Source: Rhodanobacteraceae bacterium
GTDB taxonomy: Bacteria; Pseudomonadota; Gammaproteobacteria; Xanthomonadales; Rhodanobacteraceae
DNA: 64,000 nt
Reading direction: 5' to 3'
NCBI GenBank assembly: GCA_045864815.1
Contig: BTVG01000006.1
Coordinates: forward strand, 61,611 to 125,610
The translations under genes were made by a program, and so were the position numbers. Under the pieces are notes generated by a model. It did no database searches, was not told the origin of the DNA, and saw nothing but the letters and a program-made list of their open reading frames with translations. Positions 4,160-28,081 of the stretch are shown here, one piece after another (the stretch's first letter is position 1; the number at the start of each line of letters is the position of its first letter).

Positions 4160-5707
4160 ATGCAACCTTCACCCCTCGTTTTCGCGGCGGCACTGTGCTT
4201 CTCCGGCGCTTCTGGCGCCATGACGTACGTGGTCGACACCGGCAGCGATCTTGCGCTGACCGTCTGCGAGCCGGGCCAGCCCGGCGACTGCTCGCTGCGT
4301 GGTGCACTGCAGAATGCCAACGGTAACCCGGATCCGGACCGCATCGAGTTCGCAATCCCGCCCGGCGATGCGAGCTACGTGGCTGCGACCGACCATTGGC
4401 GCATCAGCGTCGGTGCAGCTCCGCTGCCTGCGATCGAAAATGCGCTCGAGATCGACGGCTATACCCAGCCCGGCGCGGCACCGAACACGATCTCTGCCGA
4501 CAGCGGAGGGCTCGACGCCGTTCTCAAGATCGAATTGACACCGGGCAGCCAGGGCGGAACGCAGCAGAACGGGCTGGAAATATCGCCGAATTTTCCCGCG
4601 CAGGCGGCAAGCACGATCCGTGGCCTCGCGATCAGCCGATTCGCGCAACAGATCCAGCTCTGGGGCACGAGCGCCCACCGCGTGGAGGGCTGCTTCCTCG
4701 GCACCGACATCGCCGGAACGGCGGCCGCGGCGGCCGTGTCCGGCACCCGGGGTTACGGCATCTTCACGTTCGGCGCCGGGGCCTACGTCATCGGCGGCAC
4801 GTCGCCTGCCGCACGCAACCTCATCAGCGGCCTGCTCTCCGCCATCATCCTGCAACGCGACAACGACGGACTGACCGTGCAGGGAAACCTGATCGGCACG
4901 GATCGCAGCGGCACCGTGGCGATTGGGCATACGAGCTTTCCAGCGATCTACACCGTGTCGCGACTCACGAATGCGCGCATCGGCGGCGCGCAGACCGGCG
5001 CACGCAACCTGATTTCAGGCAACCCGCTCGGCGCCATCGGCTTCAGTGCCGCCGGCACCGGGCCATACGCCGGCACGCGCATCGAAGGCAACGCAATCGG
5101 CACGGATGCGAGCGGCATGCTGCCGCTACCCAATGGTGGTACGCCCGGTACCGCACAGCCGGCGATCAGCATCAGCGGCACTGACAGCTGCCATCTTCTG
5201 ATCGAAGGCAATACGATCGCGTTCAACCGCGGCGCCGGCGTCGCGGTGATCGGTTGCCGCGGCGTCGATGCCGGACGCAACCGCTATGCCCACAATCGCG
5301 GACTGCCGCTCGATCTGGCCCTGGGCTCATTCGCCGACGGCACGAACGTGAATGATCCGGATGACGCGGACCTCGGCAGCAATCGGCTGCAGAACGCCCC
5401 CGTGATCGACGACGTCGCCCTCTCCGGCGATGGCACGACGGTCCAGCTCACGTTTCACGTCGACACCGCCCCCGCGAACGCCGCCTATCCATTGACCATC
5501 GATGTCGCAACCGGGGCCGGCGGGCAGCCGCAGAACGCCGTCGCGTCGTTCACCTACATGGCCGCCGAAGCCCAGTCGCCCAAGACGGTGGCACTGGCCG
5601 CGTCGGCCCTGCAGGGCGGCGCACTGGTTCTCATTGCCACCGACGCCGAAGGCAACACGAGCGAGATCGCGAGCGACGCGATATTCGCCAGCACGCTGGA
5701 ATTCTGA
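4160..5707 (+). CDS. Secreted CSLREA-like / parallel beta-helix repeat protein with C-terminal IFxxxLE motif
   Basis: Signal peptide MQPSPLVFAAALCFSGASGA; CSLRGALQNAN; repeats GCFLGTDIAG, GNLIGTDRSG, GNAIGTDASG and ARNLISG x2; ends DAIFASTLEF. CAGGA about 10 nt before ATG 4160. Confidence 0.75.
   Translation: MQPSPLVFAAALCFSGASGAMTYVVDTGSDLALTVCEPGQPGDCSLRGALQNANGNPDPDRIEFAIPPGDASYVAATDHWRISVGAAPLPAIENALEIDGYTQPGAAPNTISADSGGLDAVLKIELTPGSQGGTQQNGLEISPNFPAQAASTIRGLAISRFAQQIQLWGTSAHRVEGCFLGTDIAGTAAAAAVSGTRGYGIFTFGAGAYVIGGTSPAARNLISGLLSAIILQRDNDGLTVQGNLIGTDRSGTVAIGHTSFPAIYTVSRLTNARIGGAQTGARNLISGNPLGAIGFSAAGTGPYAGTRIEGNAIGTDASGMLPLPNGGTPGTAQPAISISGTDSCHLLIEGNTIAFNRGAGVAVIGCRGVDAGRNRYAHNRGLPLDLALGSFADGTNVNDPDDADLGSNRLQNAPVIDDVALSGDGTTVQLTFHVDTAPANAAYPLTIDVATGAGGQPQNAVASFTYMAAEAQSPKTVALAASALQGGALVLIATDAEGNTSEIASDAIFASTLEF
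5675..5707 (+). repeat. C-terminal motif copy 1: DAIFASTLEF*
   Basis: Last 10 codons of 4160..5707. Confidence 0.7.
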
Positions 5708-5719
5708 GAGGACCCGCCA

Positions 5720-7153
5720 ATGCGACAGATACCGTCACTGTGCGTAGCACTCACCCTGCTCACACTCATACCCGCCGCGTATGGCGCGGAATGGTTCGTT
5801 TCCACCACAGGCAGCGACGCAACCGGGACCGGCTCCATCACGCAGCCGTTCCGCACCGTGCGCCATGTCGTCGAACCCGCCAACGACATCGTGGCGCCCG
5901 GCGACACGATCACCCTGCGTGGGCCGCCCGTCAACAACGTCTACGACGAGATCGAAGTTCGCCTGCGGGTGCCGCTGACCCTGCGCAGCCATCCGGGCGA
6001 ATGGGCGCACATCGCCTGTCCGATCGCCATCGAGGACACGGTCTGCATCCAGATCGATCCGGGGGCGTCGGGCAGCCGCATCTCGCGACTGGAAGTCAGT
6101 GGCGGCAATCTCTACGCGATCTTTCTGCAGACCGACTGGTATCGTCCCGACGGTACCGACGGGAACGGCGCGTCGAACATCATCATCGAGGACTCGAAAC
6201 TGCACGGCAGCGGCCGCGACGTGATCAAGATCACGCCGAAATGCGACAATGTGACAATACGGCGCAATGAGATCTATGCCTCGGGCGCCATCTATCCGCC
6301 AGGCACTCCACCGGAAGAAAAGAACGCCGAAGGCATCGACAACGTCAACGGCGCGAACATGCGCGTCGAAGACAACTACATCCACGATACCGCGACGACC
6401 GGCGTCTACTTCAAGGGCGGGGCACGCGACGTCATCGTGCAGCGCAATCGCATCGAGAACGCCGGGGAGGCCGGCATTCTCGTCGGTTTCGACACGAGCC
6501 CGGACTTTTTCGACCTTTCGGAAAATCCGCAGTACTACGAAGCGATCCGCGGTGTCGTGCGCAACAACGTCATACGCGGAACGAACTATGCCGGCATCGG
6601 CCTGTACGCATCGAGGGATGCCGTGGTCGCGAACAATACGATCGTCGATGCGGCACGATCGGGGCATGCGGCGATCTACTACGGCGTCACCCTGCAAGAC
6701 TTCGATCCCGAAGCGGGCCGGCCCGCCAACACCGGCGCACTCGTACGCAATAATCTCGTGATCCAGAACGCCCGTCCCTGCGTGGCCGTGCGCTATTCGC
6801 AGGATCTCGGCGGACTGAGCGGACTCGTTGGCAGTCCCGGCACCGACTACAACGCGTTCCACGACATCACGGGCGCCTGTACCTACATCGACGCGCGTCC
6901 GGGCAGCCCGCTCGACGAGGGCGGTACGCTGGCCCAATGGCGCGTCGCGCTGGACGCGGACAGCCACAGCTTCGAAACCGCACTCGCCGTCGACGACACC
7001 GGGCACCTGCCGGCGGGCAGCGCCGCAATCGACACGGGGCAGACACTGGCTCAGGTCACTGACGACATCGACGGGCAGGCGCGCGCGGGCGCCTACGACA
7101 TCGGGGCAGATGAGCGCAGCGCCGACGCGATTTTCGCGAATGGCTTCCAATAG
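5720..7153 (+). CDS. Secreted right-handed beta-helix (pectin-lyase-fold) protein with choice-of-anchor-Q-like domain
   Basis: Signal peptide; WFVSTTGSD...QPFRTV N-terminus; Asn-ladder repeats (IIEDSKLH, VTIRRNEIY, VEDNYIHD, VANNTIVD); GSAAIDTG...DIDGQAR...YDIGADE; ends DAIFANGFQ. Confidence 0.8.
   Translation: MRQIPSLCVALTLLTLIPAAYGAEWFVSTTGSDATGTGSITQPFRTVRHVVEPANDIVAPGDTITLRGPPVNNVYDEIEVRLRVPLTLRSHPGEWAHIACPIAIEDTVCIQIDPGASGSRISRLEVSGGNLYAIFLQTDWYRPDGTDGNGASNIIIEDSKLHGSGRDVIKITPKCDNVTIRRNEIYASGAIYPPGTPPEEKNAEGIDNVNGANMRVEDNYIHDTATTGVYFKGGARDVIVQRNRIENAGEAGILVGFDTSPDFFDLSENPQYYEAIRGVVRNNVIRGTNYAGIGLYASRDAVVANNTIVDAARSGHAAIYYGVTLQDFDPEAGRPANTGALVRNNLVIQNARPCVAVRYSQDLGGLSGLVGSPGTDYNAFHDITGACTYIDARPGSPLDEGGTLAQWRVALDADSHSFETALAVDDTGHLPAGSAAIDTGQTLAQVTDDIDGQARAGAYDIGADERSADAIFANGFQ
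7124..7153 (+). repeat. C-terminal motif copy 2: DAIFANGFQ*
   Basis: Last 9 codons of 5720..7153. Confidence 0.75.
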
Positions 7154-7308
7154 CCAGGCCCAGCCCCCGGATTACGCGTGAATCGCGGCAAAACCGTTCA
7201 GTCTTCGTGGGACGCGCGGTTCAGCTCGACTCTCCGATAGTCGCGCAGCCTCGCCGGCGTCATTGCCAGGCGAGCTTTTCTCCATATCCACAACGATAGG
7301 AAAACGCG

Positions 7309-7872
7309 ATGAACTGGATGATCGTTACGGCGATGGCTGCGGCCCTCGTCGCGGGCGTCTGCACCGCCGCACCGGCGTGTGCCGACGGATTTTTCGTCGA
7401 CGGCCGCTACGGCCGCTCCGACTTCGACGGCGACGGCAAGGACATTGCTCTCGGCATCAACGGCGGCTATCGCTGGGGTGCGTTCGGGCTCGAGGGCGGC
7501 TACATCGATCTGGGCTCCCTCGACCATGGCTACGCCTTCATCGGCACGCCCGGCGGCGGCACCTCGAGCCTGCACTCCGGCATCGACGTCGGCGGCTGGA
7601 CGCTCGGCGCCAATGGCCATTTCAATCTGACGCCCAACTGGTACCTTTCCGCACGCGCAGGCCTGTTTCACTGGAAGGCCGACGTCGATCTCGTCGGCGT
7701 GACCCAGAACGCCGAATTCAGCGGCAGCGACTGGTATACCGGCGTCGGCATCGGCTACGACTTCAGCGAGCGCTTCGGCGTCGGTCTGAACTACGACCAT
7801 TACCGTGCCGGCAAGAGCGGCCTGGATTTCGATGCCAACGTGGTCAGCGCCAACACCGAATTCCGCTTCTGA
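7309..7872 (+). CDS. Small outer-membrane beta-barrel protein (OmpA-like transmembrane domain)
   Basis: Signal peptide; alternating Gly/aromatic strands (GINGGYRW, GLEGGY, GVGIGYDF); ends in Phe (NTEFRF); GGAAAA upstream. Confidence 0.85.
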   Translation: MNWMIVTAMAAALVAGVCTAAPACADGFFVDGRYGRSDFDGDGKDIALGINGGYRWGAFGLEGGYIDLGSLDHGYAFIGTPGGGTSSLHSGIDVGGWTLGANGHFNLTPNWYLSARAGLFHWKADVDLVGVTQNAEFSGSDWYTGVGIGYDFSERFGVGLNYDHYRAGKSGLDFDANVVSANTEFRF

Positions 7873-7896
7873 TACCGGCCAGTCGCAAATGACATC

Positions 7897-7923
7897 CGCC
7901 CTCCCCTCGTCAGGGGGAGGGCG
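7897..7923. terminator. GC-rich hairpin between convergent genes (probable bidirectional terminator)
   Basis: CGCCCTCCCC-tcgtcag-GGGGAGGGCG, perfect 10-bp stem; no clear U-tract. Confidence 0.5.
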
Positions 7924-7934
7924 CAACCGGGCCT

Positions 7935-7967
7935 TCACCCCTCCAGTCCGTCGGCGAAGATCCGCAG
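7935..7967 (-). repeat. C-terminal motif copy 3: LRIFADGLEG*
   Basis: Last 10 codons of 7935..9203. Confidence 0.75.
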
Positions 7968-9203
7968 CGGCACGCCGCCGCCGGCATCCGTCGTGCAACG
8001 ATGCTGCGCATCGTATTCGAGCGCACCGATATCGGGCGCCCCGTCACCCCGGCGATTCGCACAGAAATCGTCGGCCGTCTGCGGCGTGGCCGCCCCGAGA
8101 TCCACGAGGCTCGCACCATCCCGCAGGCGAAAATCCGCCGCCGGCGGGTTCTGAAACCAGACCGCGAAATTTGCCAGGCTCACGTTGAGCAGATTGCCCG
8201 CGTTCGTGCTTGTGCCGCCATTGCGCAGGTTGATGCCCGCGCTCGACAGGTTATTGCGGATCTGCGCCGTCGACTCCGCGTAACGCACGTCGATGCCAGT
8301 GGTCGCGTACAGGGTGTTGTGCTCGATGCGCGTATTCGCGGCACGATTCAGATAGATGCCGACATCGTTGCACGACAGCACGATGTTGTTGCGCAAGACC
8401 CCGTGCTGGTGTTCCGGGATACAGGTCCCGTCCTCACAGATCGAGTTCGGACTGGTTCCGCCACCACCGAGCGACAGTCCCAGTCGGGTGCCGCCGGAAA
8501 ACTGCCGGCTGCACCGCACGAGATTGCGTTCGAACACGCCGTCGCGCGAGTTGCCCTTCAGGAATGCCGCATAGCTGACACCGTCGCCGCCGGCTTTCTG
8601 ATAGTCGTGAATCGTGTTGCCGCGCACCGTCCACCGCCGGCCGCCGACCACGTCGATCTTCGTCACCGGATTGCCGGTGTTGCGCGCGCGCGTGTCGTAG
8701 AACAAGTTGTATTCGACCACGACGTCATCGGGATAGGCGTAGACCCCATTGATCGCGAAACCGTTGCTTTTGATCTGCGCATTGAAGTCGCGCAGCACGT
8801 TGTCCCGCAGCAGCAGGAATTCGGCGCTGCCGAAGACGTGGAACGCGTGCTCGCAGTTCGAGTCGTTCGCGCACGCACCTTCGACGTCGAGGCCCTCGAA
8901 ACGCCAATGCGCACCACTGACCTTGAAGCCTTCGACGAGACCGCTGCCGAACCGCAGCAGCACGCTGCGCGGTGCTGCCGCGCGAACGCGGATCGGTGCA
9001 GCGGCCGTGCCGTCGGCGAGGCAGTTCAGGTTGGAATCGACGACGTAGGTGCCGGCAGCCAGCACGATGTCGTCGCCGGGCGCGGCATTCTGCAGCGCGC
9101 TGCGCAGGCCGGCGACGTCGCCCACGGGGACGTGGCGCAGGGCGGTGGCATTGCCTGCCAGTGCCGACAGCGCGATCAGCAGGCCGATCGGCGAAATTCG
9201 CAT
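7935..9203 (-). CDS. Secreted right-handed beta-helix protein (polysaccharide-lyase-like) with choice-of-anchor-Q-like domain
   Basis: Signal peptide MRISPIGLLIALSALAGNATA; AAPGDDIVLAAGTY; repeats RDNVLRD, EYNLFYD, RGNTIHD, EHNTLY; DFRL...LVDLG...PDIGALEY; ends RIFADGLEG. Confidence 0.8.
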   Translation of the reverse strand: MRISPIGLLIALSALAGNATALRHVPVGDVAGLRSALQNAAPGDDIVLAAGTYVVDSNLNCLADGTAAAPIRVRAAAPRSVLLRFGSGLVEGFKVSGAHWRFEGLDVEGACANDSNCEHAFHVFGSAEFLLLRDNVLRDFNAQIKSNGFAINGVYAYPDDVVVEYNLFYDTRARNTGNPVTKIDVVGGRRWTVRGNTIHDYQKAGGDGVSYAAFLKGNSRDGVFERNLVRCSRQFSGGTRLGLSLGGGGTSPNSICEDGTCIPEHQHGVLRNNIVLSCNDVGIYLNRAANTRIEHNTLYATTGIDVRYAESTAQIRNNLSSAGINLRNGGTSTNAGNLLNVSLANFAVWFQNPPAADFRLRDGASLVDLGAATPQTADDFCANRRGDGAPDIGALEYDAQHRCTTDAGGGVPLRIFADGLEG

Positions 9204-9317
9204 GGTCCGGCTCCCCTCCGACGATTCAGGAGCCAACGGTAGCGCAGGCGCGCCGCCTCTGCCGTCGACCACTTCCGACTCCCGAAGCGCCGGCATCTAC
9301 GCTAACCTGCCGCCCCT

Positions 9318-10316
9318 ATGCCCAGTACTCGACACGAATTCACCCTGGAACCGGACCATCTCGAACGGCTGGCCAATCTGGCAGGCCCGTTCGACGAGCA
9401 CCTGCGCCAGATCGAGCTGCGCCTCGGCGTCAGCATCGCCAACCGTGGCAACGTGTTCCGTGTCGACGGCGATGCCGGTCACGTCGAAGCCGCCGAGAAG
9501 GTGCTGCGGGCGCTCTACGCCGCAACCGAGGACGAAGTCCTCGATGCGCACCGGATCAATCTGCACCTGCAGGAGTCCAACGTCGCCGCGCTCGACATCG
9601 CCGCAGCCGCGGGCACCCAGGAGGTCGTCATCCGCGTCAAGCGCGGGTCCATCAAGGGACGCGGACCGAACCAGTCACGCTACCTGCATGCGATAGCAAC
9701 CCACGACATCAATTTCGGCATAGGCCCTGCCGGCACCGGCAAGACCTATCTCGCCGTCGCGAGCGCCGTCGACGCGCTGGAGGCCAACCGGGTGCAACGC
9801 ATCATTCTCGTCCGCCCCGCGGTCGAGGCCGGGGAGAAGCTCGGCTTCCTGCCGGGGGACCTGACGCAGAAGGTCGACCCCTATCTGCGTCCGCTCTACG
9901 ACGCGCTCTACGAAATGCTCGGCTTCGACAAGGTGGCCAAGCTCATCGAGCGCAACGTCATCGAGATCGCACCGCTGGCGTACATGCGCGGACGCACGCT
10001 CAATGATTCGTTCGTGATCCTCGACGAGGCACAGAACACGACGGTGGAGCAGATGAAAATGTTCCTGACGCGCATTGGCTATGGCTCGGTCGCCGTCGTC
10101 ACCGGCGACGTGACCCAGATCGACCTGCCACGCCAGGTGCGCTCGGGCCTGCGCGACGCGATCGAAGTGTTGCGCGATCTGTCCGGCATCAGCTTCACGT
10201 TCTTCACGGCACACGACGTGGTCCGCCACCCGCTGGTGCAGAAGATCGTGCGCGCCTACGAAAAACATGACGCCGAGAAGCACGAGGCTACGAAGAACGC
10301 AGGAGGCGGGGTATGA
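9318..10316 (+). CDS. ybeZ: PhoH-family ATPase
   Basis: GPAGTGKT Walker A, RPAVEAGEKLGFLPGDL, DEAQN, DVVRHPLV; between miaB and ybeY. Confidence 0.93.
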   Translation: MPSTRHEFTLEPDHLERLANLAGPFDEHLRQIELRLGVSIANRGNVFRVDGDAGHVEAAEKVLRALYAATEDEVLDAHRINLHLQESNVAALDIAAAAGTQEVVIRVKRGSIKGRGPNQSRYLHAIATHDINFGIGPAGTGKTYLAVASAVDALEANRVQRIILVRPAVEAGEKLGFLPGDLTQKVDPYLRPLYDALYEMLGFDKVAKLIERNVIEIAPLAYMRGRTLNDSFVILDEAQNTTVEQMKMFLTRIGYGSVAVVTGDVTQIDLPRQVRSGLRDAIEVLRDLSGISFTFFTAHDVVRHPLVQKIVRAYEKHDAEKHEATKNAGGGV

Positions 10317-11164
10317 CGATGTCGTGGAAAGCCGCGCTGCTGCTGGCATCGTTTTCTGCCACAGCCCCGGCGCAGACGCTGAGCGGCCCCGAAAGTGTCG
10401 AGTTCCATCCGCGTTCGGGACGCCAGCTCGTCAGCAACAAGAACGGCGGCAATGTGCTCTGGCGCAGTGCGACTGGCACGCTGAGCACGTTCACGAGCGC
10501 GCCCACCGCGCCCTACGGCATCGAGTTGCTGCGCGGCACGGTGTACGTGCTCGATTCGGGCTCCCTGCGCGGCTATGACGTCGACACGGCTGCCCCGGTA
10601 CTGAACCTCGCGATCACGAACGCGCAATTCCTCAACGGCATCGCGTCCGACGGCGACCACACGCTCTACATCACCGACTTCAATGCGAAGGGCCTGCTCA
10701 AGGTCGATGTCACCGACCTCGCAAATCCGGTGCAGACGCCGCTGCACACGCTCCCGTCGAAACCCAACGGCGTGGTCTACGACAAGGCCAACCGTCGGCT
10801 ATTGATCGCGACCTGGGGCAGCGACGGCGTGCTCAGCTACGACATTGCCGCCAACACCGCGCCGGCCCCGCTGATCACCGCGACCGGCTTCAGCAACATC
10901 GACGGCATCGCGCTCGATTGCAATGGACACCTTCACATCGCGGCATGGAGCTGCCCGGGTGGAGGCGGCTGCCTCGCCCGCTTCGAGCCGCCGTTCACGA
11001 CGGCGTCGCCGGCAACCATCGTGGCGTCGTCGCTGTCGAGCCCGGCCGACATCGACTTCGACGTGCGTGGCGGTGCGATCGGCGTACCCGAATCCGGCGC
11101 GAACCGTGTCACGCTCGTGCCGGTCTGCGCGCCGGCATTGTTCACCGATGACTTCGAACGCTGA
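10313..11164 (+). CDS. Secreted SMP-30/gluconolactonase-like beta-propeller protein
   Basis: Signal peptide; blade motifs GPESV, PYGI, LNGIASD, PNGV, IDGIA, PADIDFD; ends ALFTDDFER; ATGA overlap with ybeZ and TGATG overlap with ybeY. Confidence 0.75.
11132..11164 (+). repeat. C-terminal motif copy 4: [10 protein letters not shown]
   Basis: Last 10 codons of 10313..11164. Confidence 0.65.
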
Positions 11165-11625
11165 TGGACCTGCTCGTCCACGTGGGCCGCGCCAGCAATC
11201 TGTCCGCTGCGGGCATCCCGCGTGCGGACAGTTTCCGGCGCTGGGCCGCGGCTGCATTCGCCGTCACGCGGCGACGCCGCGCCGGCGAGCTTTCGATCCG
11301 GCTCGTCGGTGCCGAAGAGGGGCGCGCGTACAACCGTGACTACCGTGGCCGCGACTACGCCACGAACGTGCTGTCGTTTCCGGTCGAACTGCCGTCGGGC
11401 CTGCGCACACCGCTGCTCGGCGACATCATCGTCTGCGTCCCCGTCGTCGCGCGCGAGGCGGCTGAACAGCACAAGCCGGTGCGCGCTCACTATGCGCACA
11501 TGACGGTACACGGTGTGCTGCACCTGCTCGGCTACGATCACGTCAACGACACCGACGCCGAGCACATGGAAGCACTCGAACGCCGCGCGCTGGCCGCACT
11601 CGGCATTGCCGACCCCTACGCCTGA
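11164..11625 (+). CDS. ybeY: rRNA maturation endoribonuclease YbeY
   Basis: [31 protein letters not shown] zinc motif. Confidence 0.95.
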
Positions 11626-11626
11626 G

Positions 11627-12349
11627 TCAGGACGCCGCGTCCGGCAGCGGCGCCACACTGCGCGAAAGGCCGGTGTGGCGCACATCCTTGCCACGCACGA
11701 GATAGATGACCTGCTCGCAGATGTTCTTGCAGCGATCACCGATGCGTTCGAGCGCGCGCGCGCACCAGAGCATCTCGAGCGCCGCGGGCACCCGCTCGGA
11801 TTCCCGCTGCATCAGCTCGACGAGCAGATGCGTGAGCTCCTTGTAGAGCACGTCGACCTCGCGGTCACGGCGCAACCGTTCGAGCGCGCGCGTTTCGTCC
11901 ATGCGGGCAAACGTGTCGAGCGTCCCCCGCAGCTGGTCCCGCACCAGGCTGCCCATCTGGGCGAGCCGGAAACCGTAGTGTTCGGCGAATTCGGCACTGC
12001 CCAGTTTTTCGGCGATGCGGGCAATGCGTTCGGCCTCATCGCCGATGCGCTCGAGATTGGCCACCATGCGCACGACCGCCAGCACCAGCCTCAGGTCCGA
12101 CGCCGCCGGCTGGCGCCGGGCGAGGATCTGGGTGCAGCGCGCATCGATCTCGAGTTCGGCCGCGTTGACGTCGTCCTCGCGCGCGACCACATGGGCAACC
12201 TGGCGCAGATCGCGCGCCGCGAGCGCTTCCAGCGCCGTTGCGAGCTGCGCCTCGACCAGCCCGCCCATGGCCAGCACCTGCCTGGTGAGCGCCGCGAGTT
12301 CGCTGTTGAACTGCTGGGAAATGTGCTGGCCTAGGTGGAGACGGTCCAT
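11627..12349 (-). CDS. phoU: Phosphate signalling protein PhoU
   Basis: HISQQFNSEL, MGGLVEAQL, QPAASDLR, LERIGD twice; follows pstB. Confidence 0.93.
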   Translation of the reverse strand: MDRLHLGQHISQQFNSELAALTRQVLAMGGLVEAQLATALEALAARDLRQVAHVVAREDDVNAAELEIDARCTQILARRQPAASDLRLVLAVVRMVANLERIGDEAERIARIAEKLGSAEFAEHYGFRLAQMGSLVRDQLRGTLDTFARMDETRALERLRRDREVDVLYKELTHLLVELMQRESERVPAALEMLWCARALERIGDRCKNICEQVIYLVRGKDVRHTGLSRSVAPLPDAAS

Positions 12350-12454
12350 TTGTGCATTCGTGGCTATCGGTGGCGGCGTATCTGGTCAGGCCGAGGTTAC
12401 GCCCTGTTGACACGGCGCAAAAGGTGCAATGCGGCAGCGCTGCCGGCGCGGCGC

Positions 12455-14577: not shown

Positions 14578-14578
14578 G

Positions 14579-15673: not shown

Positions 15674-15679
15674 GGGCGC

Positions 15680-15713
15680 ACGCTAGGAGCTGAATATGAC
15701 AGTCATGTTACAG
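15680..15713 (-). promoter_or_regulatory. PHO box plus -10 element of the pstCAB-phoU promoter
   Basis: Minus strand CTGTAAC-ATGA-CTGTCAT (15713-15696, 11-bp period), 10-nt spacer, then TAGCGT (15685-15680): the geometry of PhoB-activated sigma70 promoters. Confidence 0.8.
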
Positions 15714-15721
15714 CCCGCTGC

Positions 15722-15777
15722 TTGTCACCGCGGCGTCATGCAGCGGCAATCGGCACGCCATCGCCGCTTCGCACTCT
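15722..15777 (+). promoter_or_regulatory. Plus-strand phased PHO-like repeats and putative -10 facing the glycosyltransferase operon
   Basis: TTGTCAC (15722) and GCGTCAT (15733), weaker CGGCAAT (15744) and ACGCCAT (15755), all at 11-bp spacing; CACTCT 10 nt later (15772). Confidence 0.55.
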
Positions 15778-17664: not shown

Positions 17665-17711
17665 AGGCCCGCCGCCGGCATCGTGTGCATGTGCTGAGGT
17701 TACGCGATGCT

Positions 17712-21000: not shown

Positions 21001-21156
21001 GAACTCCCCCGGCGACGGCGACTAGGCAATGGTCGCGAACTGTCGCACGTTGCCGCGGCGGCGTAGGTGCCGGAAGTCATGGCGCAGTGTCGACCGGCGT
21101 CCGCGGCACCGCGACCGGCCCGTATACTGGTGCCGCGGCCGCGCCAAGGAGAGCTC

Positions 21157-22008
21157 ATGAACTACCGGCATGCGTACCACGCGGGGAATTTTGCCGACGT
21201 GCTCAAGCACGCGGTGCTGGTGGGACTGATCGAGGCGTTGAAGCAGAAGCAGACGCCGTTCTGCTACATCGACACGCATGCGGGCCGGGGCCGTTACGAC
21301 CTCCACGGCGAGGAAGCGCTGAAGACCCGCGAATATGCCGACGGCGTGATGCGCCTGCTCGATGCGGCCCGGCTCCCTGCCGCGCTGCACGTCTACCTCA
21401 ACCTGGTACGCGCGCTCAATGGCAGCCGCCCCAGCCATGACATCGCGGTCTATCCGGGCTCTCCGCTGCTGGCGAGCCTGCTGCTGCGTGACGGCGATCG
21501 CGCCCAGCTCTGCGAACTGCAACCCGACGAGGCCGCCGCCCTGCGCGGCGTGTTTCGTGCCGATCCGCGCGTGGCGGTGCACGAGCGTGACGGATACGAA
21601 GCACTGAAGGCGCTGCTGCCGCCCAAGGAAAAGCGCGGACTCGTGCTGATAGACCCGCCGTTCGAGGCCCAGGAAGGGGAGTTCCGCCTGATCGAGGCCG
21701 CGCTGAAGCATGCGCGGACGCGCTGGCCGACAGGCATCTACGCGATCTGGTACCCGATCAAGCTGCGCCAGCAGATCACCGGCTTCCACCGCTGGCTGCG
21801 CAGCAGCGGATTCTCCAAAGTGCTGGTGGCCGAGCTGCTGGTCCATCCGGACAACTCGGCGCTGCGGCTGAACGGCACGGGCATGGCCATCGTCAACCCG
21901 CCGTGGAAGTTCGAGCGCCAGCTCGATGAACTGCTGCCCGTGCTTACCCAGCATCTCGCCCAGGGTCGTTTCGGCCAGCATCGGGTTGAGTGGCTCATCG
22001 AGGGTTGA
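21157..22008 (+). CDS. rlmJ: 23S rRNA m6A2030 methyltransferase RlmJ
   Basis: [39 protein letters not shown]; AGGAG upstream of ATG 21157. Confidence 0.95.
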
Positions 22009-22141
22009 GCCCGTCCGGCAGAGCGCGCGTATCCCCTTGCCACAGCGAGGAAAGAAGTCGCCCGCCGGCGCCCGCCCGGCAGCGCGACGCGCGCCCCGAC
22101 CAGGGCCGCCTATAATCGCCGCCCCCAGCCGAGGTTGTCCC

Positions 22142-23176
22142 ATGTCCAAGATGATGAAGGCCCTGGTCAAGCGCGAAGCCACCAAGGGCATCTGGATGGA
22201 AGAAGTGCCGATGCCCGAGATCGGCCCGAACGACGTGCTCGTCAAGCTCGAGAAGACCGCGATCTGCGGCACTGACCTGCACATCTACAAGTGGGACGAG
22301 TGGTCCCAGCGCACGATCAAGCCCGGACTCGTCATCGGCCACGAGTTCGTCGGTCGCATCGTCGACATGGGTGCGGGCGTGCGCGGCTATCACGTCGGGC
22401 AGCGCGTGTCGGCGGAAGGGCACATCGTCTGCGGCCACTGCCGCAACTGCCGCGCCGGCCGCCAGCACCTGTGCCCGAACACGATCGGCATCGGCGTCAA
22501 CCGCCACGGCGCGTTCGCGGAATTCATCGCGATGCCCGCATCGAACCTCTGGCCGATACCCGACCAGATCCCCTCCGAACTCGCCGCGTTCTTCGACCCC
22601 TACGGCAATGCCGCGCACTGCGCCCTCGAATTCGACCTGATCGGCGAAGACGTGCTGATCACCGGCGCGGGCCCCATCGGCATCATTGCCGCCGGCATCT
22701 GCAAGCACGTCGGTGCCCGCAACGTCGTCGTGACCGACGTCAACGACTACCGCCTGAAGCTGGCTGCGGAGATGGGCGCGACACGCGTCGTCAACGTGGC
22801 CAAACAGTCGGTCAGGGACGTGGTGAAAGAACTGCACATCGAAGGCTTCGACGTCGGCCTGGAAATGAGCGGCAACCAGCGCGCGTTCACGGACATGCTC
22901 GACTGCATGTACCACGGCGGCAAGATCGCCCTGCTCGGCATCCTGCCCAAGGGCGCCGGCATCGACTGGGACAAGGTCATCTTCAAGGGGCTGGTACTGC
23001 ACGGCATCTACGGACGCCGCATGTACGAGACCTGGTACAAGATGACGCAGATGGTGCTGACCGGCTTTCCGCTGGCCAAGGTGCTGACGCATCAGATTCA
23101 CATCGACGACTTCCAGCGCGGTTTCGACCTCATGGAAACCGGCAACTGCGGCAAGGTCGTCTGCAGCTGGAACTGA
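22142..23176 (+). CDS. tdh: L-threonine 3-dehydrogenase
   Basis: [22 protein letters not shown] zinc motifs, [20 protein letters not shown]; TATAAT at 22111. Confidence 0.95.
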
Positions 23177-23204
23177 CGCCGTCGCCAGGCGGCGCCCGCT
23201 CCGT

Positions 23205-24650
23205 ATGACGCGTTCTCCGTTCCGCACGCCCCTGTGCGCATTGACGCTCGCGCTGGCCGGCGCGGGCGTCAATGCCGACGAATTCGAGAGCGAGCCAAGT
23301 CTCGACGCGGCGGCGATCGTGCAGCCGGCGCTGCTCTCGGCACCGAATGCGACGGTCGCACCGAAGGCCCTGGTGCACGGCTACATGGCGCGCTTCGAAC
23401 TGAACACCCCGTTCGGCCAGCTGCCCGCCGAAAGCGTCGAGCTGCTCGCGATCCGGCAGGCCGAGGTACCCGCGATCGAAACCCTGGAGCGGGCGAGCCG
23501 CCGCGGCGCATTCGCGCACGCACTCGGCGAGCGGTTCCGCAAGACCGGCAAGTCCGTGCTCCAGGTCGTGTCGCATCCGATCGATTCCCTGGCAGGACTT
23601 CCGTCCGGCGTAGCGCGCTATTTCCGCAAGCAGGTCGAGCGCTGGACGGGTCGCGCGCAGTCAGCCAGCGATCGCGCCGCGCGCGAATTCGGTGCGGATG
23701 GTGATCCGTTCCGCACGCCTCAGACCCCCATGAGTGCCGCGCGCGCACCGCTGCCGGGCAAACCCGCGACAGGGACCGAAAGACCCTGGTATGGCAGCCT
23801 CGGCAAGGAAATCGGCCGCGAAGCCAAGCGCCAGCTCAAGTACAACGCCATGCGACGCGAGATGGCCAGACACCTGGGCGTCGACCCTGACTCCAGCAAT
23901 CCGCTGCTGCGCGAACGGCTTGATACGCTGGCCTGGGCCGCGGTTGCCGGCGACTTCAGCGGGGCCGCCGCGCTCGACATGGTTGGCGGCGCCGCGGCCG
24001 AGGTGATGTCGGCAGGCGGCCGGCTCAATGCGCTGGTCTGGGAACTGGACGACGAAAACCTGCGCGAACGCAACCAGCGGCGGCTCGCCCACTGGTGCAG
24101 CGACGCATTCGCACTGCGCCAGTTCCTGCGCCGCGGGGGGTTCAGCGACAGTCTGCGTACCGCGCTGGCCGACGAGGTCGACGCGCTGCAGCCCACACGA
24201 GGCTGCAACGACTTGCTGGAGATCGGTGCCGGCACGCGTAGCGAACTGGAAGCGCGCTATCTCGTCAATGCGCTGCGGCTGCTGCGCAGTCATGGCGCGC
24301 GAAATGGCGAGCTGTTCGTTGTCGGCGCGGCGCTGGCCTGGCGCGGAGACGACGGCCGGCTGCTGCTGCCGCTGCCACTGGACTGGCTCAGCTGGACTGC
24401 CGACATGGGCGAATTCTTCGCCGCGCCGCAGTTCCGCGTCGAAGACAAGACGGCACTCATCGGCGGCACCGCCTCGACCGCCGCACAACGTGCACTCGCT
24501 GCGCGCGGATGGCACCTGAGCCTGCGCACGCCATTCGCGGGCGCGCCGGCCTACACCGACGATCTGTCGCAGGGGCTGCCGCAATCGGCCATCGAGGAGG
24601 CTCCGCAGCTGTGTGTCGGCGACATAGCCGAGACCGCCGCCTGCCTGTGA
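23205..24650 (+). CDS. Hypothetical exported protein (481 aa)
   Basis: Long ORF with signal peptide (ALTLALAGAGVNA) directly after tdh; no domain recognised. Confidence 0.7.
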   Translation: MTRSPFRTPLCALTLALAGAGVNADEFESEPSLDAAAIVQPALLSAPNATVAPKALVHGYMARFELNTPFGQLPAESVELLAIRQAEVPAIETLERASRRGAFAHALGERFRKTGKSVLQVVSHPIDSLAGLPSGVARYFRKQVERWTGRAQSASDRAAREFGADGDPFRTPQTPMSAARAPLPGKPATGTERPWYGSLGKEIGREAKRQLKYNAMRREMARHLGVDPDSSNPLLRERLDTLAWAAVAGDFSGAAALDMVGGAAAEVMSAGGRLNALVWELDDENLRERNQRRLAHWCSDAFALRQFLRRGGFSDSLRTALADEVDALQPTRGCNDLLEIGAGTRSELEARYLVNALRLLRSHGARNGELFVVGAALAWRGDDGRLLLPLPLDWLSWTADMGEFFAAPQFRVEDKTALIGGTASTAAQRALAARGWHLSLRTPFAGAPAYTDDLSQGLPQSAIEEAPQLCVGDIAETAACL

Positions 24651-24796
24651 GGCAGACGCCGCGCGTGAGCGCTGGCAAGCACGTCGGACTGTGACGCGAT
24701 CGACACCCCGACTGTGGCGGCGGCGAAACATCGTGTCGCCGCGCGTATCGATAATCCGCGAGCCGGTGGTGTCGCCGGCCTGCAGGAACGGATCGC

Positions 24797-25363
24797 ATGT
24801 ACGCGGCTGCACCACACCAGATCACTCATCTACTGCGCGCCTGGCAATCCGGCGACGGCGGTGCGCGCGAATCGCTGCTGACCCTGGTCTACGACCACGT
24901 GCGCGCCATCGCGGCAAGTTCGCTGCGCGGCGCCCCCGGCGCGACCCTGACGCCGACCGAAATCGCACACGAGGCGCTGCTGCGCATCCTCGGTGCCGAC
25001 GCTGACTGGGAAGACCGCCGCCACTTTTTCCATGTCATTGCCCAGGCCACGCGACAGATCCTCGTCGATGCGGCGCGCCGTCGTCAGACCGACAAGCGTG
25101 GCGGCGGGGTCGAACGTGTCGACATCGACGATGCCGCCGACCAGATCGCCGCGGTCGAGGCCGATTCACAACTGCTGCGCGTCGACGCGGCCCTGGCGGA
25201 ACTCGGGCGCACCGACCAGCGCCGTGCACGGACGGTCGAGCTCGTGTATTTCGGCGGCTTTTCGCGTGCCGAGATCGCCGCGACGCTTGCCGTATCCGAA
25301 GGCACCGTCGACCGTGATCTGCGCCTGGCCCGTGCCTGGCTCAAGGTCGCCATCGAGGCGTGA
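24797..25363 (+). CDS. ECF sigma factor, TIGR02999/ECF43-like (second paralogue, no adjacent kinase)
   Basis: ITHLLRAWQSGD, TLTPTEIAHE, RQILVDAARRR, KRGGG, ELVYFGG, TVDRDLRLARAWL. Confidence 0.88.
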   Translation: MYAAAPHQITHLLRAWQSGDGGARESLLTLVYDHVRAIAASSLRGAPGATLTPTEIAHEALLRILGADADWEDRRHFFHVIAQATRQILVDAARRRQTDKRGGGVERVDIDDAADQIAAVEADSQLLRVDAALAELGRTDQRRARTVELVYFGGFSRAEIAATLAVSEGTVDRDLRLARAWLKVAIEA

Positions 25364-25477
25364 CACGCGCCGTCGCGGCGCCGGACGATAGCCACGCGCG
25401 GCCGTGACGCGGGGCTTGAGGTTTCCCGCACGTCATTGCGTAACCACGGACGACCACCTTCGCCCCGGAGTAGCCCC

Positions 25478-26224
25478 ATGTCGATCCGCACCATTTCCCG
25501 CCCCTTCGCCGCACTCGCGGCAATGCTGCTGACCCTGCCGGTGTCTGCTGCGCGCCCGCTGCCCGGTGCCGGTGCGCCTGCGCCAGATCTCGTGCTGAAC
25601 TGGTTCGACGGCACACCGAACTTCAGTATTGCGACGAATCTCAACTGCATCACGCAGCAACCGGAAGTCACTGTGTCGGGCTACACCGGCTTCACCTACC
25701 TGCCGCCGAACCGGACGCATTCGGTCGGCGAAGTGTTCTACACCCACCTCGTGCTGGGCCACCCGGGCAATCCCTGCACAGGCAGCGCCGTCGGTATCGA
25801 GATCGCTCTGCCCGCGGGCGTGCAGTTTGCAACATCGGCGGCCAACCCGGCATTCTGTTTCGCCCGGAGCCCGCAGGGGCCTACGTTGTACAACCTCGGC
25901 GCCGATCCGGCATATGGCTGTCCACAGAGCTATCCGCTCAGCGCCAATGGCTTCCGCATCGCTGCCCCCAATGGCGGTATCGGCGCCGGCCTCTGGGGCA
26001 TGGCGCAGGGATTCTGGCTCGAACTGCTGATCCCGCTCAGAGCGACGACGGCACAGAGCGGCGCGAACCCTATCGTCTGGACCATCAACCCCGCGATCGG
26101 ACAATTCGGCCAGGTCGGCGTCGGTCCCCAGATCAACGGCGACGTGGTGTTCCGCACCTCGCTCGAAGACCAGTCACTGACCCTCACGCTCTGCACGCTG
26201 GCGCCGGTCGCCACCGGCTGCTGA
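25478..26224 (+). CDS. Secreted Cys-containing hypothetical protein with near-terminal VFRTSLE motif variant
   Basis: GGAG before ATG 25478; signal peptide; several Cys; ends DVVFRTSLEDQSLTLTLCTLAPVATGC. Confidence 0.7.
   Translation: MSIRTISRPFAALAAMLLTLPVSAARPLPGAGAPAPDLVLNWFDGTPNFSIATNLNCITQQPEVTVSGYTGFTYLPPNRTHSVGEVFYTHLVLGHPGNPCTGSAVGIEIALPAGVQFATSAANPAFCFARSPQGPTLYNLGADPAYGCPQSYPLSANGFRIAAPNGGIGAGLWGMAQGFWLELLIPLRATTAQSGANPIVWTINPAIGQFGQVGVGPQINGDVVFRTSLEDQSLTLTLCTLAPVATGC
26141..26170 (+). repeat. C-terminal motif copy 5 (variant followed by 17-aa tail): DVVFRTSLED
   Basis: Same D-x-hydrophobic-F-x-x-x-L-E spacing as the other copies. Confidence 0.5.
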
Positions 26225-26302
26225 GGTCATGCGGGTTCACCCTCACCAGCAGTCCCGATCTGCACGCCCAAATCTACGAAGGCTTATGTACGAACATCTT
26301 CG

Positions 26303-26331
26303 TTGACAAATGCGGGCACCGATCCTAGGCT
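26303..26331 (+). promoter_or_regulatory. Sigma70 promoter for 26371..26868
   Basis: TTGACA (26303-26308), 17-nt spacer, TAGGCT (26326-26331). Confidence 0.7.
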
Positions 26332-26370
26332 GCCCAGGCCGAAGCACTCGGCCTACGGGGAAATCTCGCC

Positions 26371-26868
26371 ATGTCGTACACACGCCTTGCAGCGCTGTTC
26401 GCGCTCGCCGCCCTGGCACTGTCGCCCGGGCTCGTTCCGGCCAAAGAGTCATCCCAGCCCATCGTCGACGCCGGGCGACAGGAAACCTTCGCGGACCAGG
26501 CCGCCGCGATACGCCAGCAAATGAAACCCGGCGGTCGCTTCGAATTCGTCACGGCGGAAGAACGCCGCGAGGTCGACCGGCAGCTCGACACCATCACGGC
26601 ACTGCTCGACAAGCGTGCCGGAGGCCGTCTCAGCGACAACGACCAGCTCGATCTGCTTGCCGCGCAGGAAAGCGCCAACGCCATCCTGACGCAGCGCGAC
26701 GGACGGCGGCTGATCTGCGAGTTTTCCGCGCCGACCGGCTCCAACCGCAAGGTCAAACAATGCGTGACGTATGCCGATCGCATGCGCGCGCACAAGGAAA
26801 CCCGCAACTATCTGCGGGAAACGATGGGCAAAAGTCCGTCCTCGGGCGAAAAGATCGACGGCCTGTGA
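26371..26868 (+). CDS. Hypothetical exported protein (165 aa)
   Basis: Signal peptide; helical middle; C-terminal Cys pair LICEF...KQCVT; good upstream promoter. Confidence 0.75.
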   Translation: MSYTRLAALFALAALALSPGLVPAKESSQPIVDAGRQETFADQAAAIRQQMKPGGRFEFVTAEERREVDRQLDTITALLDKRAGGRLSDNDQLDLLAAQESANAILTQRDGRRLICEFSAPTGSNRKVKQCVTYADRMRAHKETRNYLRETMGKSPSSGEKIDGL

Positions 26869-26920
26869 GCGATCCGGCGCAGCGCGACCAGGGACGGTCG
26901 CACCGCAGATGACGACGTGC

Positions 26921-26950
26921 TCAGTCGAGCCCGTCGCGGAACAGCAGGTC
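26921..26950 (-). repeat. C-terminal motif copy 6: DLLFRDGLD*
   Basis: Last 9 codons, immediately after the catalytic-Cys strand. Confidence 0.75.
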
Positions 26951-28081
26951 GGGCACGTGCATCACGATGCAATGGATCGCGCCCGACAGCCCGATGATCC
27001 CGCTGCAATCCACACCGACCACGCTGCGCTCCGGCAATGCTGCGCGGAACGTGTCGAGCGCCGCCGCATTCTGGGTGGCAAAGCCGTTGAACTGGCAAAC
27101 CAGCGCCACCTTGTTCAACAGCACGGCATTGGCGTAGGTGAAGTGCGTGCCGCCACTGCGCCAGGCCGGCGTGCGATAGACCGTATAGCCCCGCGCGGCG
27201 AGATCGGCCGCCGTGCTTTCCGTCACTGTATACGGCACGCCGTCGCCGCTCGCATGCTGGCTGATGAGCACCTTGTCGTCGGCCAGCGGCAGCATCCACA
27301 TGTCGATGTGCTGGGTGGAGTCGTAACTCGCCGGGAACGGATCCGTCAGGGTCAGGTTCAGTCCCTGGTAGTCGCGGTAGTAATCCTTGATCTGCTGTTC
27401 GCTGAGCCCGGGGTTCTCGTTCACGATGAGCCGCGTCATGAACGCGTCGCGGTTACGGAACAAATGGAAATTGCCACCGCCGTGCGTCAGCGGAATATCG
27501 TACTTGGTCTCGCCCGAATACGTTGCCCAGGTGGCCGGGAACGCGTCATCGCCGGGGCGCGGCCGGTTGTAGACATGATCGACCGCGCTGCGGTGACCGT
27601 TGTCCTCGATGAACCGAGGACCGTAGTCACGCATCCAGACGCTGCAGCCGCTGCTGCAGGGCTGGGTCACGAACTTCACCCGCGACAGATCGGCGCCGGC
27701 GCCGGCCAGGGTCGAGGCCGCACTGCTCTGCTGGCTGGCGCCGGTCACGACCACGTAGACAGATGCATCCGGATCGCCGGTCGTGATCGCGACCGTCATC
27801 TGCGTGATCAGCGCGTTCTGCGATCCCCAGCGCACGAGAATGCCGCTGTTCCCCTCGTATTCGGCCTGCGCACGCACGCGACCGGGCGGCGGTGCAAACG
27901 GGACTTGCAGCGCGTCAGGCAAGCGCCAGTGACGGCGCTCCTCGGCGCTGAGCCCGCGCGGCAGCGGATACGGATCGTCATCCTGGATCAGCGCGAGAAC
28001 TTCGGGGGGCACGGTGCGCGGCTCAGCCGCATGCACGCCCACAGCCGCCAGCAGTAACACCCCGAACGTCGTAACCCGCAT
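26921..28081 (-). CDS. Secreted agmatine/peptidylarginine deiminase-family enzyme
   Basis: Signal peptide MRVTTFGVLLLAAVGVHA; catalytic contexts WMRDYGP, HGGGNF, HIDMW, GAIHCI; ends DLLFRDGLD. Alternative ATG 28096. Confidence 0.85.
   Translation of the reverse strand: MRVTTFGVLLLAAVGVHAAEPRTVPPEVLALIQDDDPYPLPRGLSAEERRHWRLPDALQVPFAPPPGRVRAQAEYEGNSGILVRWGSQNALITQMTVAITTGDPDASVYVVVTGASQQSSAASTLAGAGADLSRVKFVTQPCSSGCSVWMRDYGPRFIEDNGHRSAVDHVYNRPRPGDDAFPATWATYSGETKYDIPLTHGGGNFHLFRNRDAFMTRLIVNENPGLSEQQIKDYYRDYQGLNLTLTDPFPASYDSTQHIDMWMLPLADDKVLISQHASGDGVPYTVTESTAADLAARGYTVYRTPAWRSGGTHFTYANAVLLNKVALVCQFNGFATQNAAALDTFRAALPERSVVGVDCSGIIGLSGAIHCIVMHVPDLLFRDGLD

Follow-up and report, generated by a model that had tools for sequence, protein, structure and literature searches.

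A portable IFxDGFE tail at the C-termini of Sec-exported proteins in Dokdonella-like Lysobacterales and Acidobacteriota: a candidate sorting or anchoring tag

Six proteins encoded in a 64,000-nucleotide stretch of DNA from a Rhodanobacteraceae bacterium (GenBank assembly GCA_045864815.1, contig BTVG01000006.1, positions 61,611 to 125,610 of the forward strand; this whole stretch is called the window below, and positions are counted from its first letter) end in variants of one short peptide, here termed the IFxDGFE tail. Its core, as read from the sequences, may be written [ILV]-F-x-[DN]-G-[FL]-[EDQ], and its carriers appear to be Sec-exported and mostly degradative or adhesive. The tail is a portable, short linear C-terminal tag under selection, and the favoured reading, at about even odds, is that it serves sorting or anchoring and would be read after Sec export by a lineage-specific partner. 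Portable C-terminal tags on exported proteins are a known phenomenon; the architecture of this tail has not previously been catalogued.

Six Tail-Bearing Proteins

Three of the carriers are right-handed beta-helix-type proteins. The protein p1 (4160-5707, forward strand; 515 aa from the methionine at 4160) is an exported CSLREA-family, beta-helix-like protein by its translation, a weak Pfam Beta_helix match and the names of its homologues, and it ends in a degenerate tail, DAIFASTLEF (5675-5704, forward strand; translation and motif scan). The most canonical copy in the window, DAIFANGFQ (7124-7150, forward strand; translation, C-termini of homologues and an AlphaFold2 (AF2) model), ends p2 (5720-7153, forward strand; 477 aa), an exported right-handed beta-helix protein by Pfam (Beta_helix/NosD), AF2 and Foldseek. 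Foldseek searches with the p2 model returned GH136, Pel9A, rhamnogalacturonan lyase and AlgE alginate epimerases, and p2 is, judged from its modelled fold, probably polysaccharide-active. On the reverse strand, p3 (7935-9203; 422 aa from the methionine at 9203) is an exported Pel9A-like beta-helix protein (Pfam Beta_helix/NosD/Chondroitinase_B) with the tail LRIFADGLEG (7938-7967, reverse strand; translation and motif scan), and a near-identical copy on another contig (L001, a 422-aa gene call) matches Pel9A-like_beta_helix. Just before their tails, p2 and p3 match the NCBIfam model choice_anch_Q (NF041518) at 24.5 and 16.6 bits, respectively, both below the cutoff of 25.

The protein p4 (10313-11164, forward strand; 283 aa) is by translation and Pfam an exported SGL/NHL beta-propeller protein, and its 10-residue tail is a DDFE variant (11132-11161, forward strand; translation and motif scan). 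Its gene sits, unusually, between the adjacent housekeeping genes phoH and ybeY (9318-11625 for the group, forward strand), sharing 4 nt with phoH where that gene stops and p4 starts, and 1 nt with ybeY where the p4 stop codon meets the ybeY start. The exported protein p5 (25478-26224, forward strand; 248 aa; translation and Pfam, with no family match) is encoded directly downstream of a gene for an extracytoplasmic function (ECF) sigma factor. It ends in DVVFRTSLED followed by QSLTLTLCTLAPVATGC, 17 extra residues ending TGC, which make an extended, Cys-ended tail (26141-26221, forward strand; translation and a match to the third form of tail described below). Lastly, p6 (26921-28096, reverse strand; 391 aa; Pfam PAD_porph and homologues) is an exported protein resembling Porphyromonas-type peptidyl-arginine/agmatine deiminase (PAD). 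The PAD_porph match (E = 1e-27) extends to the last position of the profile at residue 382, 9 residues before the stop, and the tail, DLLFRDGLD (26924-26950, reverse strand; translation and motif scan), starts 2 residues past the end of the PAD domain, HCIVMHVP.

A basic, hydrophobic, AxA-type N-terminal leader is present in all six proteins; Sec-type leaders were judged by eye and with a simple hydropathy heuristic, which was passed by 6/6 motif-bearing gene calls versus 17/48 of the others. The translated ends are identical to those given in a preliminary description of the window, which had reported six open reading frames (ORFs) with Sec-type leaders. Its further statement that the six have unrelated folds held in part: about four classes are represented (beta-helix, SGL/NHL propeller, PAD and one without assignment), but the general fold shared by p1, p2 and p3 slightly weakens the claim of six different folds. 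The G+C content of the window is 64-71%, and named close homologues of its proteins come only from Rhodanobacteraceae and Dokdonella metagenome-assembled genomes.

Specificity of the Tail

A relaxed pattern, [ILVMA]F..[GSTD][FL][EDQ], matched the six-frame translation of the window 10 times; six of these matches are the six tails, and five sit 0-1 residue from a stop codon. Residue composition predicts about 0.006 C-terminal matches by chance among about 54 genes, against the 5 observed. Within the last 30 residues, the motif was found only in the six carriers among 54 heuristic gene calls. It is absent from the remaining 48, including the exported proteins encoded at 23205, 26371 and 33140, so that no other window protein ends this way, as had been proposed. 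A seventh candidate tail, LFNRDGMH near the end of 61601-63166, was rejected, as it belongs to a multi-pass membrane protein.

Chance resemblance, or a by-product of a DNA repeat or terminator lying over gene ends, is suggested solely by the shortness of the motif and its degeneracy in p1 and p5. Codon choice differs among the window tails and nothing is shared past the stop codon, and conservation is therefore at the protein level and not that of a DNA repeat; a repeat or terminator origin was ruled out on these grounds. The number of C-terminal matches and the retention of the motif across orthologues and across two phyla (below) likewise speak against such origins, whose probability, as judged from the sequences, is vanishingly small, and this explanation can be considered already refuted.

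Conservation in Homologues

About 80 of the 120 best p2 homologues end in D-x-[IL]-F-x-[ND]-G-F-[EQD] plus 0-6 residues, at 56-96% identity. In these proteins the motif is kept at the extreme C-terminus and the x positions are variable; the few with source names come from Rhodanobacteraceae, Dokdonella and Ahniella, and named homologues with other ends come from Burkholderiales, other Betaproteobacteria and Methylococcaceae. After an invariant DIGADE, the tail-less homologues carry a basic tail, a ~75-aa domain, DUF5648, a dockerin-like module or Ig-like domains. The basic end (PPRGRPKPKRP at the stop) and the ~75-aa domain (YRYRYY...GRDWNLLDVG...AAAGY at the stop), found in homologues that include P0037, P0049, P0058, P0067 and P0079 as well as P0051, P0053, P0064 and P0083, are not covered by the Pfam domains on record for those proteins.

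Homologues of p1 are named CSLREA domain-containing proteins, and their ends are of three kinds: canonical, degenerate like the window copy, and a third form. Most have the canonical [VL]FADGFE plus 0-2 aa; close orthologues end in DAIFADTFDF or DTIFADALGG, more distant ones in VFADGFE at the stop. In the third form, which is common in CSLREA-family proteins of Lysobacterales (p1 homologues P0140-P0236), the motif is followed by ~13-17 aa ending G-x-C (G-[RK]-C-x), for example AIFADGLEDQASTLTPGRCE at the stop. By its sequence the p5 tail fits this third form and is not a weak outlier. The DDFE variant of p4 likewise recurs at the ends of P0099, P0116, L055 and L081, and the multidomain PAD homologues P0250, P0251 and P0256 end in [LI]F-x-D-R-F-E plus 3-5 residues. 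Purifying selection on the tail across genera is supported by these sequence comparisons. IFxDGFE endings in Dokdonella-like Rhodanobacteraceae, mentioned in the preliminary description, are confirmed by the ends of homologues together with the genome scan described next.

One tail-bearing p2 homologue (P0097) is encoded inside an exopolysaccharide locus of Dokdonella sp. MW10 (L123; CP197094.1, 652780-674201), with genes for Bac_transf, several GT4 proteins, two AsnB-type amidotransferases, AMP-ligases with an acyl carrier protein, a pyridoxal phosphate-dependent decarboxylase, a FemAB-like acetyltransferase and Wzy_C. This gene set resembles exosortase-A-associated exopolysaccharide loci, and an exosortase gene was not found within the 21 kb seen.

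Distribution across Genomes

A DNA scan of one genome per species (GTDB) with the pattern ATCTTCNNSRAYGGCTTCGAR (I-F-x-[DN]-G-F-E; stop codon not required) yielded at least 123 matches in at least 120 loci of up to 8 kb; figures here and below refer to the 123 matches and 120 loci listed. Setting aside 15 matches in ORFs shorter than 100 aa and 5 running off their locus, 103 were usable, of which 26 fall 0-4 aa and 49 fall 5-20 aa before the stop, with 28 at internal positions. Chance, in cytoplasmic or otherwise unrelated proteins, accounts for many of these 28, and about ten begin a larger domain. Thus, a stop follows within 20 residues in 75/103 usable matches. Variants of the motif beyond the reach of the scan pattern were also counted in neighbouring proteins, where 9 lie in the last 20 residues and 2 elsewhere, a rate ratio of ~82-fold per position. 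Both results bear on the enrichment at C-termini on which the preliminary description had made its proposal depend, and both confirm it. Because such variants occur on roughly 1.5% of neighbouring genes, dozens of tail proteins per genome are plausible, an estimate that is biased upward if tail genes cluster.

Two forms of the tail were distinguished among the matches listed. In Lysobacterales (Dokdonella, Tahibacter, Aquimonas, Chiayiivirga, Denitratimonas and Ahniella/Ahniellaceae) the short form stops 0-4 residues past GFE. In Acidobacteriota (Thermoanaerobaculia, Holophagae and Sulfomarinibacteraceae) the long form is a fixed 19-residue tail, IFxDGFESGDTSAWSxxxP, with the consensus I-F-[AS]-D-G-F-E-S-G-D-T-S-A-W-S-x-T-V-P. 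Exactly 12 residues follow GFE in 29 of the 49 tails of the 5-20 class, and those 29 all have the Trp, while 25 of them end in Pro. All ~35 Lysobacterales matches listed come from Dokdonella-like genera, with none from Xanthomonas, Lysobacter or Stenotrophomonas; the restriction that this suggests within Lysobacterales is provisional. To judge by isolate and record names, many of the source genomes stem from activated sludge, anammox granules or soils.

Cargo and Exchange with Known Sorting Modules

The leader heuristic was passed by 47/57 listed tail proteins with complete 5' ends. A set of 71 listed tail proteins matches 60 Pfam families, which include FG-GAP, beta-helix, InhA MAM, S8 subtilases, reprolysin, M36, M14, M28, GSDH, sortilin/BNR and Calx-beta. 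NCBIfam searches with the same 71 proteins returned choice_anch_Q for 11 (best E = 2e-38) and choice_anch_B and choice_anch_J for 2 each, as well as M36 peptidase models designated myxosortase-dependent (7), rhombosortase-dependent (6) and T9SS-dependent (1), with overlapping counts; an LPXTG-anchored peptidase family, a MYXO-CTERM family, rhombotarget A and ExeM/NucH were also matched. The NCBIfam families matched are those defined by C-terminal sorting signals that swap between lineages. The motif D[IL]GA[DYF]E, which ends the choice-of-anchor Q domain, directly precedes the tail.

Such exchange can be followed at a single junction in homologues of p6, which were collected by a profile-free search against 1.84 billion representatives. 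Exchangeable ends stand directly after the PAD junction G-A-[IL]-H-C-I-V-M-H-V-P, or a few domains after it, and comprise the long tail (P0260), the short tail (P0319), the LFxDRFE variant (P0250, P0251, P0256), PEP-CTERM (P0270, P0276, P0288, P0303), and ends of type IX secretion system (T9SS) type and, in planctomycete-like homologues, of GC-dockerin-like type. The proposal of a portable module on unrelated Sec-exported proteins is thus borne out by the 60 Pfam families, the leader heuristic and the position of the tail at the same junction as known sorting modules. Among the neighbours of tail genes, PEP-CTERM-like and IPTL-like ends were seen once each, too few for inference on coexistence.

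Structural Context

The AF2 model of p2 is a confident beta-helix (mean pLDDT 91) in which the conserved tail residues 472-477 score below 50. The tail of p2 is accordingly predicted to be unpacked, and the idea that the tail is an integral strand of its own protein was rejected on this model.

Where the motif is internal, it can open a ~210-aa C-terminal domain (IFxDGFESGxLxxWS ... RYRARFYFDPN ... FDEFESRRxxYIGP at the stop), for which a model with pLDDT 95 has 16 strands, the motif forming strand 1 (residues 13-17), and a concanavalin A (ConA)-like fold. The closest PDB entries are a Teredinibacter X122 domain, the calreticulin globular domain and the clostridial neurotoxin HCN (BoNT). The domain has no Pfam model, and only weak N-terminal CBM_4_9 and NTTRR-F1 matches were obtained for the internal version. 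It was seen in L096, L048, L065 and L032 and in proteins P0391-P0461, with sources in Vicinamibacteria, Chloroflexota and Gemmatimonadota among the matches listed and in metagenome proteins, and it is often preceded by repeats of the form VVVWxSxxQDGSxxGVFGQRY.

The acidobacterial tail and this domain begin with the same ~15 residues. The window tails end 0-17 residues past the motif, so the full domain is not present in them, and on this model the short form would correspond to strand 1 of a jelly-roll and the long form to its first hairpin. A split-domain receptor, that is, a ConA-like domain lacking strand 1 and receiving it in trans, was considered on account of N-terminally short proteins such as P0402, P0405, P0411 and P0438. 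These hits start at an internal Met, have no signal peptide and lie mostly on ~1-kb contigs; they look miscalled or fragmentary and thus lend the idea no support.

Comparison with Known Signals and Systems

No already characterised signal was found to match the tail. Neither whole proteins nor isolated tails gave a model for the tail in Pfam or NCBIfam (release 20) at E <= 10; a tail profile searched against PDB sequences gave chance matches only, for example to a WD40 blade of SWD1; and letter-string and keyword searches of the literature found no published description of the motif.

The tail resembles PEP-CTERM, GlyGly-CTERM, MYXO-CTERM and LPXTG signals in being portable, C-terminal, carried by unrelated Sec-exported proteins and lineage-restricted. 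Like PEP-CTERM, it stands at the same junction after choice-of-anchor domains, and the two alternate in PAD homologues (P0270 versus P0260 and P0319); the IFxDGFE tail is also found here on M36 peptidases whose NCBIfam names refer to a sortase system. Unlike these signals, however, the tail has no transmembrane (TM) helix, Arg/Lys cluster, PEP, GG, LPXTG or invariant Cys. Across the six window tails, 26 short tails and 29 long tails, 0-17 mostly polar residues follow the motif, with no TM stretch and no Arg/Lys cluster, and the earlier contention that the six are not PEP-CTERM, GlyGly-CTERM or LPXTG-like stands. Because the short form can end at the motif, with no leaving group and no TM helix, an intramembrane protease or transpeptidase cannot process the tail.

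The C-terminal domain (CTD) of T9SS cargo (Por_Secre_tail) is likewise a non-membrane C-terminal element on Sec-exported, folded enzymes and adhesins, and it occupies the same slot in PAD and M36 homologues. It is, however, a folded beta-sandwich of 70-100 aa from Bacteroidota and relatives, whereas the tail is a peptide of 7-19 aa, unpacked by prediction, from Gammaproteobacteria and Acidobacteriota; the CTD models TIGR04183 and NF033707 gave no NCBIfam match on the tails. The window copies, at 7-27 aa, are indeed far shorter than such a CTD, as first described. Dockerins, whose pairing with cohesins tethers diverse secreted enzymes as the tail would, are also C-terminal modules, and dockerin-like ends occur at the same junction in p2 and p6 homologues. 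They consist of ~60-70-aa Ca2+-binding duplicated loops with cohesin partners, in contrast to the tail, which has no repeats and for which no cohesin-like partner was found; dockerin PF00404 matched none of the window proteins and is on record only for a non-tailed p2 homologue (P0108).

As a short, aromatic-rich terminal peptide, the tail is also similar to the beta-signal of outer membrane proteins (OMPs) read by the beta-barrel assembly machinery (BAM), the YxF motif read by the PDZ domain of DegS and the donor strands of chaperone-usher pili; in all of these, recognition follows Sec export and relies on strand pairing or on a domain that binds peptides. It differs from the OMP beta-signal in that its cargo is soluble (beta-helix, propeller, PAD), its last residue is usually acidic and its distance to the carboxylate is variable. 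A true OMP in the window (7309-7872) ends in TEFRF, unlike the tail proteins, among which only p1 ends in F and the others in Q, G, R, C or D, in agreement with the remark that most copies lack the terminal BAM aromatic. No pilus or usher genes were found near tail genes. Type I secretion signals are uncleaved C-termini of ~50 aa, often with RTX repeats, on proteins with no Sec leader, whereas the tail proteins are Sec-led, and no RTX or HlyD/ABC neighbours were found near the window tail genes. The ConA-like (LamG/CBM4_9/X122-like) domain is, like the tail, a C-terminal add-on to varied secreted proteins with the same first ~15 residues as the acidobacterial tail, but it is a complete fold of ~210 aa, of which the tails hold only strand 1 or strands 1-2. 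The Xps-type type II secretion system is widespread in Lysobacterales, while the tail appears, provisionally and from the ~35 Lysobacterales matches listed, to be limited to Dokdonella-like genera; a type II secretion address, one of the roles suggested at the outset, is therefore unlikely.

Gene Neighbourhood

All-against-all clustering of 688 genes from the at least 120 motif loci was used to look for a partner. Exosortase, rhombosortase, myxosortase and sortase genes were found neither in the window nor in the loci listed (up to 8 kb each). The sole recurrent neighbour among these loci is a transmembrane Ser/Thr kinase with a PF07638 ECF sigma factor: the kinase occurs in 9/120 loci, in both Lysobacterales and Acidobacteriota, its sigma factor in 5, and by gene coordinates the kinase directly adjoins the tail gene in about 7 of the 9. 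The preliminary description mentioned neither these kinase and sigma genes nor the 19-residue acidobacterial form or the ConA-like domain.

Two PF07638-type ECF sigma genes lie within the 64-kb window. One (3505-4071, reverse strand) is paired with a kinase gene and is divergent from p1-p2; the Hanks-type Ser/Thr kinase (1137-3734, reverse strand) is a transmembrane protein whose TM segment lies at residues ~478-498 and whose C-terminal, periplasmic part is a helical-repeat region of ~370 aa resembling tetratricopeptide repeats (TPR). The second (24797-25363, forward strand), without a kinase, lies 73-115 nt upstream of p5. Sigma/kinase pairs of this kind are a known regulatory type, ECF43 (PMC8999054, PMC13147305), to which the window pair may belong. 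Most simply, the sigma factors of the window and loci would regulate the neighbouring exoprotein genes; that the kinases also sense the tail is speculation.

Between p2 and p3 lies a gene for a 187-aa OMP_b-brl protein, the OMP ending in TEFRF mentioned above (7309-7872, forward strand), which is kept in the near-identical contigs L001 and L002. This small OMP was considered as a partner and rejected: it does not recur near tail genes elsewhere in the loci listed and thus is probably not the partner.

Proposed Mechanism and Alternative Explanations

In the proposed mechanism, the carrier protein would be exported by Sec and fold in the periplasm, where its exposed tail would be bound by a lineage-specific partner that either moves the protein across the outer membrane or retains it at the cell surface or matrix. 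The tail would thereby fill the role taken on homologous proteins of other bacteria by PEP-CTERM, T9SS CTDs or dockerins. It would not be a substrate of an intramembrane sortase-type enzyme, since it has no membrane-spanning segment and no basic cluster, and tails ending right at E fit poorly with a transpeptidase, which would require a leaving group. Variable spacing past GFE makes fixed-register recognition of the free carboxylate, as by PDZ-type domains, unlikely. Beta-strand addition would be the likeliest mode of recognition, because the motif is the first edge strand of a ConA-like jelly-roll elsewhere; strand addition to a partner is a reasonable proposal, held less firmly than sorting or anchoring itself, which we infer along with it.

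Several points weigh against sorting or anchoring. No recurrent transporter, protease or scaffold was found among the 688 neighbouring genes of the loci listed. In three Lysobacterales loci (L045, L092 and L105) the motif is internal, with 126-442 aa after it, and the number of residues past GFE varies, from 0 to 4 in Lysobacterales. A peptide of 7-9 residues is short for specific recognition. Low AF2 confidence is common at protein termini and is weak evidence of exposure, the lineage restriction is known from the matches listed (at least 120 loci), and the case for sorting or anchoring draws throughout on sequences and models. It is a still more tentative and rather doubtful possibility that the tail represents a new sorting or tethering class in diderms, in which a membrane-helix-free peptide of 7-19 residues, possibly a jelly-roll edge strand, would be read by a dedicated partner in Dokdonella-like Lysobacterales and in Thermoanaerobaculia/Holophagae, with dozens of cargo proteins per genome.

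The tail might instead bind not a protein but the cell's own exopolysaccharide, lipopolysaccharide or floc matrix, possibly via Ca2+ bridged by its acidic residues, so that enzymes are kept near the cell. Lectin-like or binding modules (DUF5648, dockerin-like ends) at the same junction in homologues, the ConA-like lectin fold of the related full-length domain, the Dokdonella p2 homologue inside an exopolysaccharide biosynthesis locus and the apparent origin of many source genomes all fit such a role. However, 7-19 residues are too few for a lectin site, and the invariant aromatics (F, F, W) point to strand pairing or contact with a protein more than to ionic binding, so matrix binding is unlikely. 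Roughly equal in standing, and no less improbable, is the view that the tail is a vestigial or structural stub, either the remnant of a lost ConA-like domain or a cap against carboxypeptidases, with no partner in trans. This would account for the identity of the first 15 residues of the acidobacterial tail with the start of the ConA-like domain, for a length series of 210, 19 and 7-9 aa, and for the Pro that usually ends the long form, but 60 or more unrelated families would each have had to be cut, independently, at the same residue, which is implausible, and the view is at odds with purifying selection across genera, with the strong restriction of the tail to exported proteins and with the way it takes the place of genuine sorting signals in families that such exchanges define.

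A signalling role has also been weighed, in which the tail would be a ligand read in the periplasm by the TPR-like ectodomain of the Ser/Thr kinases that control adjacent ECF sigma factors, and the cell would thereby monitor, or feed back on, exoprotein production or export. There is precedent in DegS, which reads OMP C-termini to activate sigma-E, and TPR domains commonly bind short acidic C-terminal peptides. The kinase and sigma genes divergent from p1-p2, the second sigma gene upstream of p5 and the recurrence of the kinase family in both phyla, often adjoining a tail gene, are consistent with this role. Yet adjacency may mean only that the sigma factor controls the next gene, a single generic ligand would leave many paralogous sensors without specificity, and p3, p4, p6 and most loci have no such neighbour. 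Moreover, Xanthomonas has an ECF43-type sigma/kinase pair, PknS/EcfK (PMC13147305), yet is absent from the tail matches listed. A signalling ligand is accordingly judged quite unlikely.

Other Features of the Window

An exported beta-helix gene without an IFxDGFE tail (59340-60308, forward strand) is split by an in-frame TAA at 59694-59696 into ORFs 59220-59696 and 59715-60308; its leader begins near 59340, the local GC is slightly lower (0.63-0.64), and either gene decay or a sequence error is the probable cause. The window also encodes, at 32439-32939 on the reverse strand, a bacterial SET-domain protein (PF00856, E = 2e-28).

Significance

The recognition of LPXTG, PEP-CTERM, GlyGly-CTERM, MYXO-CTERM and T9SS CTD signals led in each case to a dedicated envelope machine and to prediction of the surface or secreted proteome. 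The IFxDGFE tail is tag-like in all computable respects, being portable, carried by exported cargo, lineage-restricted and exchanged with known signals. As it has none of the TM or basic parts of sortase-type systems and is far smaller than the T9SS domain, a reader of the tail must work differently, should sorting or tethering be its function. Dokdonella, Tahibacter, Aquimonas and Thermoanaerobaculia are among the carriers. Several carriers are in culture, namely Aquimonas voraii DSM 16957, Chiayiivirga flava DSM 24163, Dokdonella fugitiva A3, Tahibacter caeni BUT-6 and Denitratimonas tolerans KACC 17565, which makes the function testable. If degradative enzymes are kept close to the cell in such organisms, this may be important for the formation of flocs and the turnover of polymers. 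With a simple model of the tail, a large class of extracellular proteins that now lacks annotation could be picked out.

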